Origin: a bacterium
GTDB lineage: Bacteria; UBA8248
Reading direction: 5' to 3'
NCBI GenBank assembly: GCA_965203325.1
Contig: OZ241875.1
Span: 1,504,001 to 1,568,000, forward strand
Length of the DNA: 64,000 nt
The notes beneath the pieces were generated by a model. The model saw only the letters and a list, made by a program, of their open reading frames with translations. It ran no database searches and was not told the origin of the DNA. The number at the start of each line of letters is the position of its first letter. The stretch's first letter is position 1. The translations under genes were made by a program, and so were the position numbers. Positions 740-63,581 of this stretch are shown here, piece by piece.

Positions 740-1447
740 TTATCCGCGCACCCCGGTGTGAAGCTCGGCGATGCCGCCCGTCATCGGGCGACGGTTCACC
801 TCGCGAAAGCCCGCATCGCGCATCATCGCCGAGAACTGCTCGGCTTCGGGAAATTCATAAACCGTGTTTGGGAGGTAATTATACGCGCTTCTGTGGGCTG
901 AGACGAGTCTGCCCACCACCGGCAGGAGAACCTTGAAGTAAAAGGCATATAAAAGCCCAAACAGGCCACCAGGGTGTCCGAATTCCAGCACTACGAGCCT
1001 GCCGCCCTCTTTCAAGACGCGGCCCATTTCCTTTAAGCCCGCCTCACGATCCTCGAAATTGCGAAGACCGAACGCGATGATCACCCCGTCGAACGCACCG
1101 TCCCCAAAAGGGAGGCTCAGCCCGTCTCCCTGGATGAGGGATAAGGGAGCGCCCTGCCTCTCCGCCTTCGTCTTCCCGCGCGCGAGCATGGGATACGCGA
1201 AATCAACGCCGAAGATGCGCGCGCCGCGTCCGGCTTGGGCGTACACTTCCAGAGCGACGTCGGCCGTGCCCGTCGCCAGATCGAGAAAGCAGGCCTCTCC
1301 TTTGAAATCGCTAAGAAGGCTCGCCACCGCGCGCTTGCGCCAGAGGCGGTCGACGCCGAAGCTCAAAAGCCGGTTCAGGAGGTCGTAGGTGGGCGCGATG
1401 TCCGAGAACATCGCCTGGACTTCGCGTTTCTCGACCCGGGTCGGCAC
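740..1447 (-). CDS. menG: UbiE/MenG family demethylmenaquinone methyltransferase
   Basis: MFSDIAPTYDLLNRLLSFGVDRLWR, LDLATGTAD SAM motif, AFGLRN; clustered with prenyltransferase and UbiD genes. Confidence 0.9.
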   Translation of the reverse strand: MPTRVEKREVQAMFSDIAPTYDLLNRLLSFGVDRLWRKRAVASLLSDFKGEACFLDLATGTADVALEVYAQAGRGARIFGVDFAYPMLARGKTKAERQGAPLSLIQGDGLSLPFGDGAFDGVIIAFGLRNFEDREAGLKEMGRVLKEGGRLVVLEFGHPGGLFGLLYAFYFKVLLPVVGRLVSAHRSAYNYLPNTVYEFPEAEQFSAMMRDAGFREVNRRPMTGGIAELHTGVRG

Positions 1448-1453
1448 GCGCGC

Positions 1454-2332
1454 TCAGCCCGCGCCGATGAGCACGTCGGCGACCGCACCCGATGCGACCA
1501 CCACGGACACCCAGGCGTTGAGATTAAAGAAGGATATGTCTACGCGGCTCAAATCGTCGGGCCGCACGATCCAGTGCTCCCAGAACAGGAGACACCCCGC
1601 CGCCGCCAGCGCGAGCCAGTAAACGGGGCCGAGACCGAATATCCAGCCCGCGGCGAAGAAACAGGCCAGCGTCCCCAGATGGGCGAGCGCTGAGACGATG
1701 AGCGCGCCCTTCACGCCCAGAAGACGCGGGAGGGAGTGGATATTCTCCTCGCCGTCGAAATCCACGTCCAGACAGGCGTATATGAGGTCGAAGCCGCCGA
1801 CCCAGAGGGTGACGCCGCAGAAGAGCAGAACGGGCACAAAGCCCAGATCGCCGCGCACGGCCACCCACGCGCCCGCAGGCGCACAGCCCAGGACGAAGCC
1901 CAGGAACAGGTGCGTCCAGGAGGTAAATCGTTTCGAGTAGCTGTAGAAGACGATGCAGGCCGCCACGGCGAAGGAAAGCGCGAACGCGAGCGGATTCAGC
2001 ATCCAGGCCGAGAGGAGGAAGAGCGCCAGAAAGCCCGCCAGCATCATGAGGATGGATTTCGAATGGAGCAGCGCCTGGAACTCGGCGCGGTCTTTCGTCC
2101 TCGGGTTCTTGGGGTCGATGTCCCTGTCGGCGAAGCGGTTGAGCGACATGGCGAAATTCCGCGCGCCCACCGCCGCCATGACCATCCAGAACAGGACCCA
2201 GGCGGAGGGAACCCCGCCGGCCGCCATCACGCCGCCCATCAGCACGAAGGGGAGCCCGAAGACGGTGTGCTCGAACTTCACCATGCGCAGGAACTGTTTG
2301 AAACTCGCGCTCATCGACGCCTCAGCCGCCAA
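1454..2332 (-). CDS. UbiA-like polyprenyltransferase (MqnP type)
   Basis: VKFEHTVFGLPF, NRFADRDIDPKNPRT, YSYSKRFT, GFDLIYACLDVDFD; multiple TM helices. Confidence 0.9.
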   Translation of the reverse strand: MAAEASMSASFKQFLRMVKFEHTVFGLPFVLMGGVMAAGGVPSAWVLFWMVMAAVGARNFAMSLNRFADRDIDPKNPRTKDRAEFQALLHSKSILMMLAGFLALFLLSAWMLNPLAFALSFAVAACIVFYSYSKRFTSWTHLFLGFVLGCAPAGAWVAVRGDLGFVPVLLFCGVTLWVGGFDLIYACLDVDFDGEENIHSLPRLLGVKGALIVSALAHLGTLACFFAAGWIFGLGPVYWLALAAAGCLLFWEHWIVRPDDLSRVDISFFNLNAWVSVVVASGAVADVLIGAG

Positions 2333-3785
2333 GGCCGTACTCCTCCCAGCGCCTCGTGACGCGCTCTTTTATCTCGTCCGTCATCACGATCTCGGGCGGC
2401 CATTCGCGCTCGAAACCCTCGGACGCCCATTTCCGGGTGCCGTCCACGCCCACCTTGCTGCCCACGTGGAGGCGGGGCGCGGCGTGTTCGAGCGCGTCCA
2501 CGGGGCCGTCGACGAACACCATGTCGCGCCTCGGGTCGATGCTGCCGAGCACCTTCCAGGAGACCTCGCTGATGTCGTGCACGTTCACGTCCTCATCCAC
2601 GATGACGATGACCTTCGCGAGCGCCATCTGCCCCATCCCCCACAGGGCGTACATGACCTTGCGCGCGTGGTAGGGATAGGACTTGCGTATCGAGACGATC
2701 ACCATGTTGTGGAACACGCCCTCCGCCGGCATGTGCACGTCCACGATCTCGGGGAGCTGCATCTTCATCAGCGGCAGGAAGATGCGCCCCGTCGCGCCGC
2801 CGAGCCAGTAGTCCTCCATCGGCGGGCGGCCCACGATGGTGGTGGGGTAGATGGCCTCGCGCTTTCTCGTGATGGCCGTCACGTGAAAGACGGGGTAGTC
2901 GTCCGCCAGGGAATACCAGCCCGTGTGATCGCCGAAGGGTCCTTCTTCCCTCAACTCGCCGGGGTTCAGGTAGCCCTCCACCACGATGTCCGAATCCGCG
3001 GGCACCTCCACGTCCACCGTCTTGCACTTGACCAGCTCGGCGCTCTTTCGCCTTAAAAAACCGGCCAGGTTCAACTCGTCAATCGCGGGCGGAAGCGGCG
3101 CGCTCGCCGCGTAGACGTAGACGGGGTCGCCGCCCAGGGCGATCGCCATCTCCATGCGCGCGCCCATCTTCGTGCTGTCCTGAAAGTTCTGCGCCCCGTC
3201 GTGGTGTAAGTGCATGTGCATGCCGGCGGTCTTCTCGTCAAAAAACTGCACGCGGTAGAGGCCCACGTTCCTGCGGCCCGTCCGGGGGTTTCGCGAGTAG
3301 ATGTGCCCGAAGGTAATGTAGCGTCCCGCGTCCTCGGGCCAGCACTTGATGGCGGGTATCGAGAAGAGATCCGGGTTTTCGGTCTCGACGATCTCCTGGC
3401 ACGGGGCCGCGCTCACCGTTTTCGGGGAGAAAGAAGCGAGCCGCGCGAGCTTGGGCAGCATCTTCACCTTCTCGATGATGCCCTCGGGCGGCTTGATTTC
3501 GAGAAGCTCGGCCACCTCGTCCGCCACCGCGTCCATGCTGTCGACGCCCAAGGCCATTTTCATCCGAAGGTCCGAGGCGTAGGCGTTGATTAGGACGGGT
3601 ATGTCGTATTCGCGCCCGTCGGGATCGACCGGCTTTTCGAACAACAGGGCGGGGCCGCCGCTCTTCACCGAGCGGTCGGCGATCTCGGTGATCTCGAGTT
3701 CGATATCCACCGGAACCTGGACGCGGCGCAACTCGCCCGCGCGTTCTAAAGCGTCGACGAAATCTTTGAGGGAGGCGTACGCCAT
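2322..3785 (-). CDS. UbiD family menaquinone-biosynthesis decarboxylase (MqnL type)
   Basis: Start MAYASLKDFVDALE; EGPFGDHTGWY, GRPPMED and VIVIVDEDV motifs. Confidence 0.9.
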   Translation of the reverse strand: MAYASLKDFVDALERAGELRRVQVPVDIELEITEIADRSVKSGGPALLFEKPVDPDGREYDIPVLINAYASDLRMKMALGVDSMDAVADEVAELLEIKPPEGIIEKVKMLPKLARLASFSPKTVSAAPCQEIVETENPDLFSIPAIKCWPEDAGRYITFGHIYSRNPRTGRRNVGLYRVQFFDEKTAGMHMHLHHDGAQNFQDSTKMGARMEMAIALGGDPVYVYAASAPLPPAIDELNLAGFLRRKSAELVKCKTVDVEVPADSDIVVEGYLNPGELREEGPFGDHTGWYSLADDYPVFHVTAITRKREAIYPTTIVGRPPMEDYWLGGATGRIFLPLMKMQLPEIVDVHMPAEGVFHNMVIVSIRKSYPYHARKVMYALWGMGQMALAKVIVIVDEDVNVHDISEVSWKVLGSIDPRRDMVFVDGPVDALEHAAPRLHVGSKVGVDGTRKWASEGFEREWPPEIVMTDEIKERVTRRWEEYGLGG

Positions 3786-21010: not shown

Positions 21011-21464
21011 GAGGCCGTTGAAAAAGCCTCTCGATGCGGGAAAACCACCGTCATTCCGACGAAAGCCGGAATCCATTTTATGATTTTTGCTTTCGTTTTC
21101 GCATTTGACTCCGACTCGCGGGAGGGAGCGTCGCGCCCGAATCCGGAACGAATGAGGCGGATATATATGGCGGCGTCCGTATCTTCCCCGGTCGGGAGAG
21201 AGGACATCCGGGCGAAAGACCAAAAGCAAAGGCAAAATCAAAATGGATTCCGGCTTTCGCCGGAATGACGATCAAAACAAAAAGGCGGGCGGACGCCGCG
21301 GTTGCGAAATGACGGCGTCGTGCGGCTTACGTATTGCCCGTAGGGACAGGCCTCCGTGCCTGTCCGATATCCGACAAAGGACAACCACGGAGGGCAGGAC
21401 AACCCCGATAAGGGGTTGTCCCTACGGATCGAACCCGCTACTGAGGGACTTTTTAACACCCCTC
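21011..21464. repeat. Nested palindromic composite repeat (MITE/REP-like)
   Basis: Outer ends GAGGCCGTTGAAAAAGCC and GGACTTTTTAACACCCCTC; inner 30-bp inverted pair 21049-21078/21241-21270 (29/30 identical); GTAG-REP pair 21340-21365/21397-21425. Confidence 0.75.
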
Positions 21465-39806: not shown

Positions 39807-40054
39807 GTATAACCTCAAATAAATCAAATGGATAAATTTTCACTTATTTTCACGAAAACATCGTGAATTTATCGAATTTTTCACTATTTTTCAGCAATTC
39901 GTTTTTCGGGGAAACGTTTTTCGCGCACCGCCACCATACCCGACCCGAACCCCCGCCGCCACGGGCAAATGCGGGAAATTGCGTGATCAACCCCGACCGA
40001 TGAGGGGTCGAACCCGATTGATGAATGAGGGTTCGCCGCGACCGATGAAGGATC

Positions 40055-59286: not shown

Positions 59287-59736
59287 ATGCAAAAACTCTT
59301 CGATCATTTCAAAACCAACGCCGGCGTATGGACGTTCGGGCTATTCATGGCCGCGATAGCGGGCGGCATCTATCAATTCACGGTATTCATGGTCAGCGCC
59401 CAGGTCACGCCCGTCAGCGAGCGCGTCGATGCGGAAGTCAAGAGGCTCGACGCGGCGGATGGGAACACGAACATCAGAATCGCCGATTTCAAGGAGCACA
59501 TGGACGAGCGTTTCGACGAATTGAAGAGAGGCGTGGGTGACCTCAAAGAAGATGTAAAGCGCAACAGGGAGCGAATCGATCTTCTCGACAAAAAAATCGA
59601 GAGGAAAATAGAATTCCTGGATCGGAAAATAAGCCGTTTGGATGCGAAAATCGACAAGAAATTCGACCTGCTGGATGCGAAAATGGACGAGAAGTTCAAC
59701 CTCATCCTGCTGAGGCTCCCGCCGCTCAAGAAATAG
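59287..59736 (+). CDS. Hypothetical membrane-anchored coiled-coil protein with LDxKID-type repeats
   Basis: N-terminal TM segment; IDLLDKKIERK/IEFLDRKISR/LDAKIDKK/FDLLDAKMDEK; GGAGG upstream. Confidence 0.7.
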   Translation: MQKLFDHFKTNAGVWTFGLFMAAIAGGIYQFTVFMVSAQVTPVSERVDAEVKRLDAADGNTNIRIADFKEHMDERFDELKRGVGDLKEDVKRNRERIDLLDKKIERKIEFLDRKISRLDAKIDKKFDLLDAKMDEKFNLILLRLPPLKK

Positions 59737-59789: not shown

Positions 59790-60422
59790 TCAAGCCAGCG
59801 TTTCGCCGAGCGCCGCCAGTTCATCGAGCGCATCCCTGGCGAAGGAACTCTGGAAGACGGCCTCCGCTGCAGCCCCCGGATAGACGGCCCACAGCGCGTC
59901 CTTATCGCAGAACAAGATGGTGGTGAGAGGCCGCAAAACGATCGCGCCTACAGTTTCGTGCACGTCGGGCCGGTTGATCCACCTGCGGAACGAGGCTTCG
60001 CAGTCCGCCGCAAGTGTGAGTTCTGAATCCCAGAGCGGATCGCCCGAATAGAAGTTCTGAAGATTCGGGCCGGCGAATTCATTCTCAAGATATGCGCGCT
60101 CAAGCGGCTGGAGGCTTTCCGCTTTCTTGTGGATTCTGAACGAATGAGACGCCGCGCAGGCGACGCCTATCCGCATCGTGGCGGGGCTTTGGCGAGATTG
60201 CGCGCGATACTCGAACCACACGCTCTTGCCCGAATAGCGGCCCCGCAAATGGCCGCCTTCGAGATGCGACGTTCCCGCATCCAGAATTTCTGCCAGCGGC
60301 TTCATCCGGCGGGCGAGCCACACGTCGCGGAAGAAGACGTAATAGACGACTGCGCCGAGAACCACCGCCAGGGCGAGGAGGCTCGGTCCGTCCAAATGCA
60401 CTCCAAAAAGCGACAAACCCAT
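59790..60422 (-). CDS. Hypothetical single-TM membrane protein
   Basis: 210-aa ORF with an N-terminal hydrophobic helix, filling the gap between neighbours. Confidence 0.6.
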   Translation of the reverse strand: MGLSLFGVHLDGPSLLALAVVLGAVVYYVFFRDVWLARRMKPLAEILDAGTSHLEGGHLRGRYSGKSVWFEYRAQSRQSPATMRIGVACAASHSFRIHKKAESLQPLERAYLENEFAGPNLQNFYSGDPLWDSELTLAADCEASFRRWINRPDVHETVGAIVLRPLTTILFCDKDALWAVYPGAAAEAVFQSSFARDALDELAALGETLA

Positions 60423-60495
60423 AGGCTCAAAACCTTTTGGTGAACCATCTCACAAGTCTACAAACCATCTTTGAGAATCCTACGCTCCGCGAGTC

Positions 60496-60523
60496 TGGAT
60501 TCCGGCTTTCGCCGGAATGACGA
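60496..60523. repeat. Copy of the GGATTCCGGCTTTCGCCGGAATGAC palindromic repeat
   Basis: Identical to 21244-21271. Confidence 0.8.
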
Positions 60524-60547
60524 TGAGAAAAACATTCCCGCAAGAGT

Positions 60548-62896
60548 CTATTCAGCATCACTAAACCTTACTTTTCCTCCGCTAGATTCAACAGCTTCGA
60601 TTATGATCTTCCGTATCTCGGACAGAAACTTTCTTGACAGCGGGGGCATCACAGCTTCGGGAAGCGGTGCCGTCTCGTCATAGATATTGCGGATATCACG
60701 GGTTCGCAGGCGTGTGGAACCCCTGCCGCGACGATCATAGGCAGTCCGCCAATCTTCAAGATGTTCTTTGATCAAACGTCGATGAGCCAAACCATCTATA
60801 GCCCCGGATACTCTTTCCCGCACACTTTCGATCGCCGCTTGCCTCTCTCTTTCATCCCCCTCATTCTTGAGTTCACGAGTCCAACTGGTCGGCTGGTCCA
60901 GAAACCGCGAAATGGATTCAGTCAATCGATCACTCAGATCCGCAACGGGACGAAGTTCAACATATTCGACGTTGAGTTCGTCCGCGATGCGTCGATTGAG
61001 AGCTTTGATACTAGCCCAGTGTGCCTTATTTGTTCCTTCGTAACTGCCGAACCCAAGTATAGCCAGCCAACGATTCTGAAATTTCTCAACCGCTTCTCTC
61101 ACAGCAAGAGCAATGCCGTCTGTGTCGTAGACAGGACAGGCTTCGGACAATGGCGTTGGTGAGATAGCTTGCTCACAGAATTGGGTCAGTCTCTTCATTT
61201 CTTCTTGCACGAAATTGTTTGCCGCTGGAGGTAACTTGGAAAGTTTCTTATCGACGCCGCCGAGTATGAAACATCGGCCGTCAATTTCCTGTTCCATGCT
61301 TCTGGCGACTGGTTCACTTAGAATGTCCATGTCCCTCAAGCTGGATAGAGCATTCCGGACTGAATCCATAACATGGTTCCGCTTGTCGCTGAATGTTCGA
61401 AGATTTTGCCCCTTTATCTGATCAAAGTGAGTAAAAGCGATTGCGGTTTTGCTGTTGTGGCCACGAGTGGCAACAGCGCGGAGCACTGAAAGAGGAGCAG
61501 CCTGCATCGGCTGCTGAGCATTGTCTACGAGGAGAATGACGTCTGCTTGGTTAAACCGCTCGGTGATATGAGTGGGGACACTAGAGGAAGAATCCGCCGT
61601 ATGCCCCAAGCCTTGTCCGTCTATGAGTACTAGTTTTGGTGTATCGTTGGAAAAGTCTGGAAACAAAGGCCCTTTAACGCGAATCCCCTCTACGAGGGGT
61701 GTCAACAATCGACCAAAATCCCGCCAAAAATTGCTGGAGAACCAGCGGATATTGCGAATGAATTCATCCCGGTCTTCTGTGTTGAACAACCAAAATATGG
61801 GCCACCCCTCCGAGGAATGCCGACATATCTCTCCCGCTTTCAAAAGGTCGAACCGCGCCCGGAGCGCATCCAACACATTATGGACAAGCGCATAATAATG
61901 ATCGTCATTGCTGATGTAGGTGTCGAGTTCTTCTTCGATTAACTGCTTCGCTGCATCACGGTCGGGGTTAGCAGGATTATCGAAATCAACGCCGAGGTCG
62001 GCTGATAATCGTTCGCGGGCTCTCTTTGTCAACTGCAAGATCTGATCGATGAACCCTTCAAGAACGTCCCGGTTTTCGGCTCTTTCACCATCCGTGAGAC
62101 CCGTTTCTTCATTAGTGTTTGGGCTCACGCTCACATCTTCCTCATAATCGAAAGAAAACTCATCTTCTTCACTGTGCTGTTCAGTGGCCTCTCGCCATCC
62201 CCCGAGAACATAGCTGAGACGGAATTTTTGGTCGCGATGATTCAGGAAGCGTTCGGCTATTTTGTCTCTGAGAGCACCTTCGTACGCAGCAAGACAGGCA
62301 TCAATGATGCATTCTTCTACGTTCGCTTGAACCTGAAACTCGGTAAAGAATGTAACGACAGCCTCAAAACTGCCCTCTGCCTGCACGACTTCGATGTCGG
62401 CAATCGTAGTCTTGTTAGGGGCTGTTGACGGGAACCGGTCATTATCGGGGTCCGATCCGATAAGTTGCCTTAGCAGCGAAGTCTTTCCGGCCCCGGTCGT
62501 CCCAACGAATAAAACGCGTGAATAGCCATCTTCCTTTCTAGGAAGTGGGATGTGGACTTCTCGCAGGTCTCCCGGCTTGGATCGCCCGGCTTGGATCGCA
62601 TCATAGAATGCGTTGACAATGACCTTTGAGAAGCGTTGCTCCGCTTCGGGACGTTTGGTGCTGTTCCACCAGGATCGGTCAGAAAGAATCGTATTCATTT
62701 CAGCAACTAGACTATCCGCCTCGATTTCGTTTTCCGTCCCCAGACCACGACGCATTTTGAGACCCGTCTTCCCTTTGGCGTCCTTTCGGAGGGGATGACG
62801 AAAGCTGATTGACCATCCTGGACGATTCGTGCGTGATTTCGAGGCGGTATAGGTTCGGTCAGGCGCGTCATTGTTTTTTGCCACTTTTCTCACCAT
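60548..62896 (-). CDS. Large P-loop GTPase-domain protein with N-terminal putative DNA-binding domain (candidate defence protein)
   Basis: G1 GTTGAGKT, G2 KTT, G3 DGQG, G4-like THFD; helical C-terminus; visibly lower GC than flanks; AGGAGG RBS. Confidence 0.8.
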   Translation of the reverse strand: MVRKVAKNNDAPDRTYTASKSRTNRPGWSISFRHPLRKDAKGKTGLKMRRGLGTENEIEADSLVAEMNTILSDRSWWNSTKRPEAEQRFSKVIVNAFYDAIQAGRSKPGDLREVHIPLPRKEDGYSRVLFVGTTGAGKTSLLRQLIGSDPDNDRFPSTAPNKTTIADIEVVQAEGSFEAVVTFFTEFQVQANVEECIIDACLAAYEGALRDKIAERFLNHRDQKFRLSYVLGGWREATEQHSEEDEFSFDYEEDVSVSPNTNEETGLTDGERAENRDVLEGFIDQILQLTKRARERLSADLGVDFDNPANPDRDAAKQLIEEELDTYISNDDHYYALVHNVLDALRARFDLLKAGEICRHSSEGWPIFWLFNTEDRDEFIRNIRWFSSNFWRDFGRLLTPLVEGIRVKGPLFPDFSNDTPKLVLIDGQGLGHTADSSSSVPTHITERFNQADVILLVDNAQQPMQAAPLSVLRAVATRGHNSKTAIAFTHFDQIKGQNLRTFSDKRNHVMDSVRNALSSLRDMDILSEPVARSMEQEIDGRCFILGGVDKKLSKLPPAANNFVQEEMKRLTQFCEQAISPTPLSEACPVYDTDGIALAVREAVEKFQNRWLAILGFGSYEGTNKAHWASIKALNRRIADELNVEYVELRPVADLSDRLTESISRFLDQPTSWTRELKNEGDERERQAAIESVRERVSGAIDGLAHRRLIKEHLEDWRTAYDRRGRGSTRLRTRDIRNIYDETAPLPEAVMPPLSRKFLSEIRKIIIEAVESSGGKVRFSDAE

Positions 62897-62934
62897 TCAA
62901 TCCTCCTAATGAATGTATCCCGAAACAACAATGC

Positions 62935-63006
62935 GTTGTTCCTTGTTGTGGCAATATATGACGAACGCAGGATTTTGTCAAGAATTTTAGTACAACTCGG
63001 AACAAC
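62935..63006 (-). promoter_or_regulatory. Sigma70 promoter flanked by inverted 15-bp operator-like repeats
   Basis: TTGACA (62981-62976)-N17-TATATT (62958-62953); GTTGTTCCTTGTTGT (62935-62949) and ACAACTCGGAACAAC (62992-63006). Confidence 0.7.
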
Positions 63007-63077
63007 ATTTTTAGAATAAATTAAAGAGTAAGTTCATCTCACCAAAAAACAACCCCACCAACCATCCGTGTATGACT

Positions 63078-63581
63078 CTATGAAAGACCCTCCTGCGCAT
63101 CCCGCCAGGCGGGGCGGCTGCCGGGGAACATGTCCGAATCGTGGAACACCTCGATGCGGTTGCCGTCGGGGTCCAGGAAATATATGCCTTCGTGTCCGCC
63201 CCAGAGGCCGTTGCTCGCATCGAGGCGCAAGGGGCCCCAGACGACCTCGATGTCGGGGCGCGAGCGGATGTAGGCCACCGCGTCGTCGAACGCTTGCTGG
63301 TCGGCCACCTCGAACGCGAGGTGGTGCAGGCCTACGTCGCGGCGCGGCACGGTGTCCTCGCCTTCTTCTTCCACCCAGTCTTCGGGCACGCTGAATATCG
63401 CCAGTTGGTGGTGGTAGTCATCCAGATACATGAACGCCGAGCCGAACGGCGCCGCCGGGTGGCTGCCCGCCTCGTGGCGCGAGCGCAGCTTGAAGCCCAG
63501 GACTTCGGAATAGAACTTGATGGCGCGATCCAGATCGCGCACCTTGATGCCCATGTGCTGCAGGCGGATGGAGCGAATCAT
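63078..63581 (-). CDS. VOC/glyoxalase family protein
   Basis: LQHMGIKVRDL, FYSEVLGF, HHQLA, GLHHLAFEV, YFLDPDGNRIEV. Confidence 0.88.
   Translation of the reverse strand: MIRSIRLQHMGIKVRDLDRAIKFYSEVLGFKLRSRHEAGSHPAAPFGSAFMYLDDYHHQLAIFSVPEDWVEEEGEDTVPRRDVGLHHLAFEVADQQAFDDAVAYIRSRPDIEVVWGPLRLDASNGLWGGHEGIYFLDPDGNRIEVFHDSDMFPGSRPAWRDAQEGLS

Follow-up and report, generated by a model that had tools for sequence, protein, structure and literature searches.

What does a large GTPase gene of atypical composition do at a site that stands empty in 11 other members of its genus? The window, that is, the whole 64,000-nucleotide stretch of DNA analysed here, comprises positions 1,504,001–1,568,000 of a bacterial genome assembled as a single contig of 4.39 Mb (lineage UBA8248; contig OZ241875.1 of assembly GCA_965203325.1), and the gene in question is an open reading frame (ORF) on its minus strand at 60548–62896. 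The original prediction, made from the letters alone, described a horizontally acquired, stand-alone GTPase with a putative DNA-binding N-terminus as a candidate single-gene defence system, and proposed structure modelling with fold searches, a PADLOC scan and an analysis of homologue neighbourhoods as checks. Dynamin-superfamily GTPases such as Mx and GBP are central to eukaryotic antiviral immunity; to our knowledge, few bacterial dynamin relatives have a known role. On balance, we favour the reading that this locus is a mobile one-gene cassette encoding an autorepressed dynamin-like GTPase, with defence as its most likely role.

The ORF call and translation gave a protein of 782 amino acids. 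The GC content of the gene is 0.504 (0.507 at third codon positions; GC3), compared with 0.61–0.67 (GC3 0.72–0.87) for the neighbouring genes and 0.624 for the whole window, in line with the AT-richness that had been claimed for it. Its parts are as follows (window coordinates, with the basis of each assignment in parentheses).

60548–62896, minus strand: GTPase ORF, 782 residues, dynamin-like with an N-terminal DNA-binding-like head (ORF call, family search, model, fold search)
62681–62851, minus strand: N-terminal head, residues 16–72, three strands and a helix, basic (models, charge)
62552–62662, minus strand: helical linker, residues 79–115 (model)
62342–62530, minus strand: G domain part one, residues 123–185, with the P-loop (G1), the switch I Thr (G2) and a β-hairpin (alignment, model, fold search)
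61841–62341, minus strand: acidic, mainly helical insert, residues 186–352, net charge −23, with a disordered loop at residues 241–262 (model)
61397–61840, minus strand: G domain part two, residues 353–500, with an aromatic hairpin (W365, P366, W369), DGQG (G3) and THFD (alignment, model)
60551–61396, minus strand: C-terminal helical region, residues 501–782, aligning with the neck and trunk helices of BDLP and IniA (model, fold search)

The GTPase motifs lie where they had been predicted: G1 (GTTGAGKT) at residues 132–139, G2 (KTT) at 162–164, G3 (DGQG) at 426–429 and, at the G4 position, THFD at 489–492. The spacing between G2 and G3, put at roughly 250 residues in the original prediction, is 262 residues. 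In an alignment of 87 relatives, with identities down to 29%, residues G132, G137, K138, T164, D426 and G429 do not vary, and T489, H490 and D492 hardly vary; the near-invariant THFD retains the Thr and Asp of the (N/T)KxD motif and has His in place of Lys.

An AlphaFold2 model was calculated from the 87-sequence alignment (predicted local distance difference test score, pLDDT, 91.0; predicted template-modelling score, pTM, 0.91), and all of its significant Foldseek matches were dynamin-like proteins (E values of 6e-6 to 1e-3). Structural alignment with VIA-align was performed on the Foldseek list and, independently, against 48,161 representative chains, among which MFN2, Fzo1, SynDLP, Campylobacter DLP (Cj-DLP) and IniA were the top five, ahead of ordinary GTPases. 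The Z scores were 15.5 for MFN2 [237 residues, root-mean-square deviation (r.m.s.d.) 3.5], 15.2 for Fzo1, 15.0 for SynDLP, 14.7 for Cj-DLP, 14.2 for IniA (341 residues, r.m.s.d. 8.5), 12.4 for BDLP (382–388 residues spanning 123–776 of the model, r.m.s.d. 6.3), 12.4 for EHD4, 11.9 for OPA1, 11.1 for LeoA, 10.2 for MxB (PDB entry 4whj) and at most 11.2 for translation-type GTPases. Helices occur at residues 502–771, as expected from the helical look of the C-terminus in the original prediction, and the superposition of this stalk on BDLP and IniA is loose. The G2–G3 segment sits where dynamins carry an extra segment of their own; it is acidic (net charge −23) and mostly helical, with about 165 residues that include the disordered loop. 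As modelled, intact G1–G3 motifs, a large G domain and a helical neck and stalk, all features of the dynamin superfamily, are present, and the protein is a soluble-looking dynamin-like protein of the fusion (mitofusin/BDLP) type, extended by the insert and by the N-terminal head. The predicted GTPase is thus assigned more precisely. Separately, the strongly acidic loop of the insert (residues 241–262; window 62111–62176) was seen to keep an F-S-F core among 35 close relatives, with F249 invariant and S248 nearly invariant; this core may be a short docking motif.

The fold itself brings in a different explanation, in which the protein is an accessory membrane-repair or membrane-remodelling dynamin resembling DynA or mycobacterial IniA that raises envelope stress tolerance, the head serving only in regulation and any link to phages being indirect. 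The closest folds are those of the fusion dynamins mitofusin, Fzo1, BDLP, Cj-DLP and IniA, the aromatic hairpin is conserved, and DynA acts at the membrane according to the parts of two reports used here (PMC8844932, PMC12998192). A hydropathy scan, on the other hand, gave no hydrophobic paddle or transmembrane segment, the best 19-residue Kyte–Doolittle mean being 0.92, within strands of the G domain. With the distribution and the neighbourhoods described below also taken into account, we regard a membrane dynamin as unlikely.

Is the gene a resident of the genus or a newcomer? For the empty-site search, the 7.2 kb around the GTPase gene was compared with 30 relatives. A clean empty site is present in 11 same-genus genomes (G002, G003, G004, G007, G009, G010, G011, G012, G013, G014 and G016), in which the flanks are 12–21 bp apart and window positions 60393–63089 have no counterpart. 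At the base level, the glyoxalase stop codon of the empty form abuts the start codon of the next ORF; in the present genome the insert replaces 13 bp, and both neighbouring genes stay open with new ends. The GTPase gene was found in one of 23 genus genomes by protein search and in one of 51 phylum genomes by profile search, the one being this genome in each case. The elements of the site are listed below.

60393–63089, no strand assigned: segment missing in 11 genus relatives, 2,697 bp (comparison with relatives and run contigs)
60531–63052, minus strand: GTPase cassette proper, about 2.5 kb (comparison with the G005 allele)
60393–60530, no strand assigned: left arm common with G005, carrying a hairpin repeat and supplying the 210-residue ORF with its new 5′ end (match to locus L054)
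63053–63089, no strand assigned: right arm common with G005, carrying the new glyoxalase stop codon (match to locus L054)
63078–63581, minus strand: flanking glyoxalase/VOC family gene, 3′ end changed by the insertion (family scan, base-level comparison)
59790–60422, minus strand: flanking 210-residue ORF, no family match in the family scan, 5′ end changed by the insertion (family scan, base-level comparison)
60497–60521, plus strand: solo copy of a 94-copy hairpin repeat (repeat search)

Both forms of the site also occur in public sequencing runs. Runs X1 and X2, from one study, each hold a filled contig (60498–63146, no differences) and a contig joining 60392 to 63090 with 14 other letters between, while run X3, from another study, holds two empty-site contigs, and also short stretches of the gene that are about 99% identical. 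Across the three runs, the empty-form contigs join 60392 to 63089, 63090 or 63097 with 13–21 other letters between. These data are contigs and therefore establish the existence of both forms, not their proportions.

A third allele was found in genome G005 (locus L054, G005:C2:679300-681800), which has identical junctions and both outer arms in common with the window and a different cargo of 820 bp. Window 59775–60530 matches L054 178–935 without a break at 80% identity, and window 63053–63603 matches L054 1756–2303 at 90% identity; the cargo between them holds an unrelated 240-residue ORF (L054 980–1702, minus strand) for which Pfam and PADLOC scans gave no match. Because G005 has the same junctions and another cargo, the outer 138 bp of the insert, with the hairpin repeat, and the 36 bp at its other end are arms of an older event. 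The cassette proper, as bounded by this comparison, consists of 46 bp, the promoter region, the ORF and 17 bp. The older insertion split the abutting stop–start gene pair, so that 63078–63089 now encodes a new C-terminus of the glyoxalase and 60393–60422 a new N-terminus of the 210-residue ORF. A fourth allele lies in G008, a more distant genus member with flanks 83–86% identical (locus L045, G008:C10:1480500-1483700). Here, about 90 bp from the glyoxalase gene, a decayed fragment of a related GTPase (1404–2375, minus strand) matches residues 624–774, including the conserved C-terminal signature of the family, and is fused to a frame resembling a pyrimidine-dimer DNA glycosylase at a sub-threshold score (22 bits against a cut-off of 23). 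From the G005 and G008 alleles, the site has held a GTPase-type cassette more than once and exchanges its cargo.

No tRNA gene was found at 40000–64000, no meaningful direct or inverted repeats and no target duplication at the ends of the insert, and no integrase or transposase gene within it; homologous exchange through the flanks would be the simplest route for the swapping of cargo. The 11 empty sites and the occurrence in a single genus and phylum genome support the horizontal acquisition of the gene that the original prediction had proposed. They also bear on the membrane dynamin introduced above: a gene that is missing in 22 genus relatives and swaps with unrelated cargo is ill-suited to a housekeeping role. 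Next to the site, a 149-residue ORF at 59287–59736 (plus strand; GC content 0.516, below its neighbours) encodes a protein with a hydrophobic stretch at its N-terminus and a tail of repetitive coiled coil (31-nucleotide repeat units at 59585–59702), and is kept in the closest relatives.

The palindrome noted downstream of the gene in the original prediction is real and has an 8-bp stem and a GAAA loop (60497–60521), 27 nucleotides past the GTPase stop codon. It is not special to this gene. The 25-base hairpin repeat has 94 copies in the genome (49 forward and 45 reverse; none for the reversed control pattern), most of them as inverted pairs 111–190 bp apart in the manner of repetitive extragenic palindrome (REP) doublets. 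The copy beside the GTPase gene is solo, and further copies within the window lie at 21050–21074 and 21245–21269. The repeat is plentiful in genus relatives and in metagenome runs, and the summed contig depth at 60382–60528 is very high. Being dispersed in 94 copies, the hairpin is a feature of the host genome and not of the GTPase gene.

How would a transferred gene be controlled in a new host? The upstream region holds the following elements, listed in the direction of transcription.

62989–63006, minus strand: upstream word pair, in gene sense GTTGTTCC, 2 nucleotides, GTTGTACT (putative operator; word search)
62953–62981, minus strand: sigma-70-type promoter (consensus scoring)
62935–62952, minus strand: downstream word pair, in gene sense GCCACAAC, 2 nucleotides, GGAACAAC (putative operator; word search), directly after the −10 box
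62922–62929, minus strand: extra inverted word GTTGTTTC in the leader, able to pair with the preceding word (word search)
62902–62907, minus strand: ribosome-binding site AGGAGG (upstream-region comparison)

The promoter (TTGACA, 17 nucleotides, TATATT) matches the consensus at 11 of 12 positions. Two tandem pairs of 8-bp words of the GGAACAAC type flank it in opposite orientation, with the words 10 bp apart within each pair; three of the five words in this copy are degenerate. The control region of this copy is intact, because the word pairs flank a promoter with 11 of 12 consensus matches. Upstream of 21 long-form genes from different phyla the elements are arranged alike, with two tandem GTTGTTCC words about 15 bp before TTGACA and two tandem GGAACAAC words after the −10 box, followed by the ribosome-binding site. 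Words were counted at up to one mismatch in the 250 bp upstream of these genes, which gave 58 words in the 21 loci compared with about 3.6 expected from shuffles; at least one word is present in 20 of the loci and at least two in 17. When five more long forms were included (four on plasmids and one on a viral contig), the counts were 24/26 and 20/26, respectively. Word density reaches 17.7 per kb in the last 150 bp upstream, and is 1.46 further upstream, 1.19 in coding sequence and 1.0 downstream. The idea that the words are recombination sites at both ends of the cassette was rejected on these densities; at 1.0 per kb downstream, they do not mark its far end.

Short forms that lack the head provide a natural comparison. 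Paired words were found in none of eight and a single word in two of eight of these forms, which fall into two separate clades, one with five Dehalococcoidia forms and the other with three forms encoded on Rhodococcus plasmids. Those of Rhodococcus (L049, L050 and L051; 671–683 residues) were observed to lie in operons, directly behind two or three co-directional unnamed genes, for which, as for one ORF upstream of a Dehalococcoidia form, no Pfam family was found; they may represent a multi-gene version of the system. In the present leader, the extra inverted word and the last operator word (62922–62942) were noted to form an 8-bp palindrome, a possible hairpin absent from the other loci; at −9 kcal/mol (z score −1.73, with 8 of 200 shuffles as good) it is not significant.

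A head that looks sequence-specific could also belong to a general transcription regulator of other host genes. When the whole 4.39 Mb was searched at up to two mismatches, however, the tandem pair occurred only twice, at 62935–62952 and 62989–63006, both at the promoter of the GTPase gene itself, and the gene is foreign to the genus. Such a regulator is so improbable that we give it hardly any weight.

The head was modelled both within the full-length protein and as an isolated domain (pLDDT 74.9 for the latter). Both models show strands at residues 18–22, 28–38 and 44–51 and a helix at 57–72, which form a three-stranded antiparallel sheet on a helix, and the net charge over residues 1–56 is +11; the basic, β-rich N-terminus of the original prediction is therefore present. 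Its likeness to integrase arm-type domains received weak support. The arm domain of lambda Int (residues 14–64) aligned with Z 4.2 (r.m.s.d. 2.3, 51 residues), not above background; AP2 domains gave Z 3.8–3.9 and PDB entry 2wcc gave Z 3.7. No arm-type Pfam family was found for the head of the window copy at E values up to 10. DUF6538, which is presumably a domain of tyrosine recombinases, was touched weakly by 7/21 heads (best E value 0.018) and matched in 3/21 relatives, the only one above the cut-off being a 126-residue ORF. Alignment of the head profile with hhalign gave nothing for this ORF and a probability of 0.5% for a P4-type integrase, and a literature search returned no paper mentioning DUF6538.

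These values could be read to mean that the head does not bind DNA at all, that it mediates protein contacts, and that the words are sites for host factors or a part of the promoter. The DNA-binding folds (Z at most 4.2) indeed rank below unrelated enolase-type capping domains, which do not bind DNA and are the best fold matches of the head (Z 5–6.3); Foldseek with the head gave no match at E values up to 1e-3, and no DNA-binding Pfam family was found above threshold. Against this, the gene is accompanied by the words in at least eight phyla, whose host factors differ widely, paired words are missing from all eight headless forms and the head has a strong positive charge (+11 over 56 residues), so that we consider a head that does not bind DNA very unlikely. 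From co-occurrence, position and charge, the head probably binds the words and represses its own gene. A DNA-binding, autoregulatory N-terminus, as originally proposed, is in this sense consistent with the position of the words around the promoter and with their co-occurrence with the head; for nucleic acid sensing, which had also been suggested, the support extends only as far as this putative binding to the gene's own promoter.

The family to which the GTPase belongs is large and mostly unnamed. Searches gave 2,059 matches at E values up to 1e-3 among clusters at 90% identity and 1,235 clusters at 50% identity, of which 404 had E values up to 1e-30; among 120 listed matches few entries are named, and these read 'hypothetical protein' or, in one case, 'predicted GTPase'. 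Relatives at 37–62% identity come from Alphaproteobacteria and Betaproteobacteria, Binatia, Terriglobia, Gemmatimonadales, Cyanobacteria, Planctomycetes, Desulfobacterota, Dehalococcoidia and Bacillota, and this wide spread is a sign of horizontal movement. Pfam Dynamin_N (PF00350) scored 22.0 bits against a cut-off of 27, over residues 128–150 only. The PADLOC scan (PADLOC-DB 2.0.0), one of the proposed checks, matched no system model beyond P-loop-level hits to mad8 (E value 1.9e-4), LeoA (E value 0.014, residues 126–150), HerA and mad3. A sequence search of solved structures gave no match at E values up to 10. In the ESM Atlas, unnamed clusters of the family itself scored 0.99; a feature match of 0.92 to clusters named SrfC (Virul_Fac, PF10139) was also observed, to which the Pfam scan lends no support, and which may indicate a remote link between two large unnamed P-loop families. 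A literature search, with supplements outside its scope, found no paper on this family or on a dynamin with such a head.

Could the cassette instead serve itself? A selfish maintenance or exclusion module of mobile DNA, either an addiction-like protein or a segregation NTPase that uses the words as a centromere-like site, would suit a mobile, self-contained cassette, some copies of which lie on plasmids or beside integrases, transposases or conjugation genes. Repeats flanking a promoter resemble plasmid partition sites. Yet relatives are present on only 12 of 72,556 plasmid records (7 of the 12 near full length), and the partition-system idea was rejected on this rarity. Only four words occur, they overlap the promoter and none is at the 3′ end of the cassette, and several copies, including the present one, lie on chromosomes as lone genes inserted among metabolic ones. 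No relative was found in 50,697 phage records, and a pattern-limited search of 2.9 million viral contigs gave two true relatives and one weak match. With relatives so rare on plasmid, phage and viral records, a host-side accessory gene fits better than plasmid maintenance or a phage gene, and we judge the selfish module to be quite improbable.

If the gene serves its host, its neighbours may indicate in what capacity. The neighbourhoods of 26 homologue loci were analysed by simple ORF picking, which gave 202 ORFs within 4.5 kb. No partner gene common to the 26 loci and no dynamin neighbour was found, and the gene therefore stands alone as had been predicted. Restriction–modification, toxin–antitoxin or other defence-type Pfam neighbours occur in 11 of the loci and transposase, integrase, resolvase or conjugation neighbours in 10, the union being 16/26. 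Type I restriction–modification genes lie directly downstream of the homologue in Telluria and Massilia; other defence-type neighbours include MqsRA, HipA, HEPN/nucleotidyltransferase, GmrSD with an OLD-type ATPase, Cas1 and an E1/E2/JAB set, and the copy on a Caballeronia plasmid adjoins an antitoxin, a patatin-like phospholipase and a nucleotidyltransferase. The frequent toxin–antitoxin, restriction–modification and transposase neighbours are a further point against the membrane dynamin discussed above. The neighbourhood analysis that had been proposed as a check thus returned defence or mobility genes in part of the loci, with no partner gene; as these counts have no background rate, the neighbourhoods are suggestive, and they make a defence role plausible.

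To the fold matches of the head given above are added several points that weigh against an autorepressed, mobile defence dynamin. The G4 position lacks the usual lysine, so that GTP specificity is putative. The result of the hydropathy scan is compatible with peripheral membrane binding. Two long-form loci, L005 and L053, have no word at all, the two short-form clades are few in number and internally related, and the words could be bound by another factor. Ten of the 26 homologue loci lie among metabolic or unnamed genes only, often with GC3 below that of the flanks, and without a background rate no enrichment can be claimed from 16/26. Finally, Pfam, NCBIfam and PADLOC gave no above-threshold match for the GTPase, the only similarities being at the level of the P-loop.

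The mechanism that we favour would run as follows. In it, the GTPase gene is the only cargo of a small cassette that moves horizontally and is composed of a promoter with four flanking words and one ORF; the cassette occupies a hot spot of cargo exchange, with the glyoxalase gene on one side and the 210-residue ORF, putatively a small membrane-protein gene, on the other. The basic head would bind the 8-bp GGAACAAC words on either side of its own −35/−10 promoter, and an oligomer bound there would silence the gene, perhaps through a loop of the roughly 60 bp that separate the word pairs, such that autorepression keeps the GTPase at a low, buffered level. A trigger that releases or overcomes autorepression would then allow GTP-driven self-assembly against phage or other invading DNA. 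By analogy with Mx, Bacillus subtilis DynA and Eleos, a role of the GTPase body in conflict with phages or other invading DNA is a tentative assignment, just short of probable. A more far-reaching version is speculative and, in our view, doubtful: the protein would open a new class of immunity built on one gene, as an Mx-like dynamin that needs no membrane and that its head keeps bound to its own promoter; infection, for example through titration by invading DNA or a change in the GTP pool, would release the GTPase and de-repress the gene, and the GTPase would assemble on a viral target. In its boldest form, the GTPase would work on DNA itself, as the first dynamin-type DNA-remodelling motor.

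Whichever of these holds, a large multi-phylum family outside Pfam, NCBIfam and PADLOC joins a dynamin body to a DNA-binding-like head and a self-contained regulatory circuit, in a compact and portable unit that is directly testable in laboratory hosts. The four alleles of this site (empty, filled, decayed and with another cargo) constitute an unusually clean natural experiment that fixes the transfer unit at about 2.5 kb (promoter cage plus ORF). A defence role would add a new member to the single-gene systems and connect the dynamin-based immunity of bacteria with that of animals; if the role is not defence, the protein would still be a new kind of autoregulated dynamin. The present analysis adds the four-allele site, the genome-wide uniqueness of the word pairs, the co-occurrence of head and words as seen in two short-form clades and a fold assignment that is independent of Foldseek.

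With regard to known systems, the GTPase is most similar to the fusion-type dynamins mitofusin 1/2, Fzo1, Nostoc BDLP, Cj-DLP1/2, SynDLP and IniA, with a G-domain fold at Z 14.2–15.5 over 231–341 residues and an alignment with BDLP over 382 residues that includes the helical region (Z 12.4). In common with them it has G1–G3, additional sequence between G2 and G3 and, after the G domain, bundles of helices. The fusion-type class is likewise not known to have a lysine at G4. Unlike these proteins, the GTPase has an N-terminal DNA-binding-like head and a far longer, acidic G2–G3 insert (262 residues from motif to motif), no hydrophobic paddle or transmembrane segment was found in it, and it moves in a cassette that has no other gene and whose promoter is caged.

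Among defence systems, Eleos ('Dynamins', LeoA/LeoBC) consists of dynamin-like GTPases in defence islands, and mutants in the phosphate-binding motif lose defence, according to the parts of the report used here (10.1101/2022.05.11.491447). The LeoA structure reaches a Z score of only 11.1, and the PADLOC LeoA profile hits nothing but the P-loop (E value 0.014, residues 126–150). In Eleos, two or three dynamin genes follow one another in an operon and no DNA-binding head is present, whereas the locus described here has a single gene with a DNA-binding-like head and is not a member. The same parts of that report describe the animal Mx proteins as antiviral dynamin-superfamily GTPases (10.1101/2022.05.11.491447). 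With Mx, the GTPase has in common the dynamin superfamily; the Mx proteins are antiviral, act without a membrane anchor and are expressed under tight control, all of which would apply to the GTPase in the favoured reading. Mx proteins differ in being eukaryotic, interferon-induced and without a DNA-binding head or autoregulation (MxB, Z 10.2). B. subtilis DynA, in the sections drawn on here, is a membrane-acting bacterial dynamin that lessens the damage of phage infection (PMC8844932, PMC12998192). It is a housekeeping, two-headed, membrane-binding protein, in contrast to the mobile cassette described here. The head, lastly, resembles the lambda Int arm domain and AP2 domains in its three-stranded sheet on a helix and in having short words, tandem and inverted, as putative targets; unlike in those domains, it is attached to a GTPase and not to a recombinase, no sequence relation to them was found and the scores do not exceed background. 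The GTPase is a variant of the dynamin superfamily that stands outside any named system.

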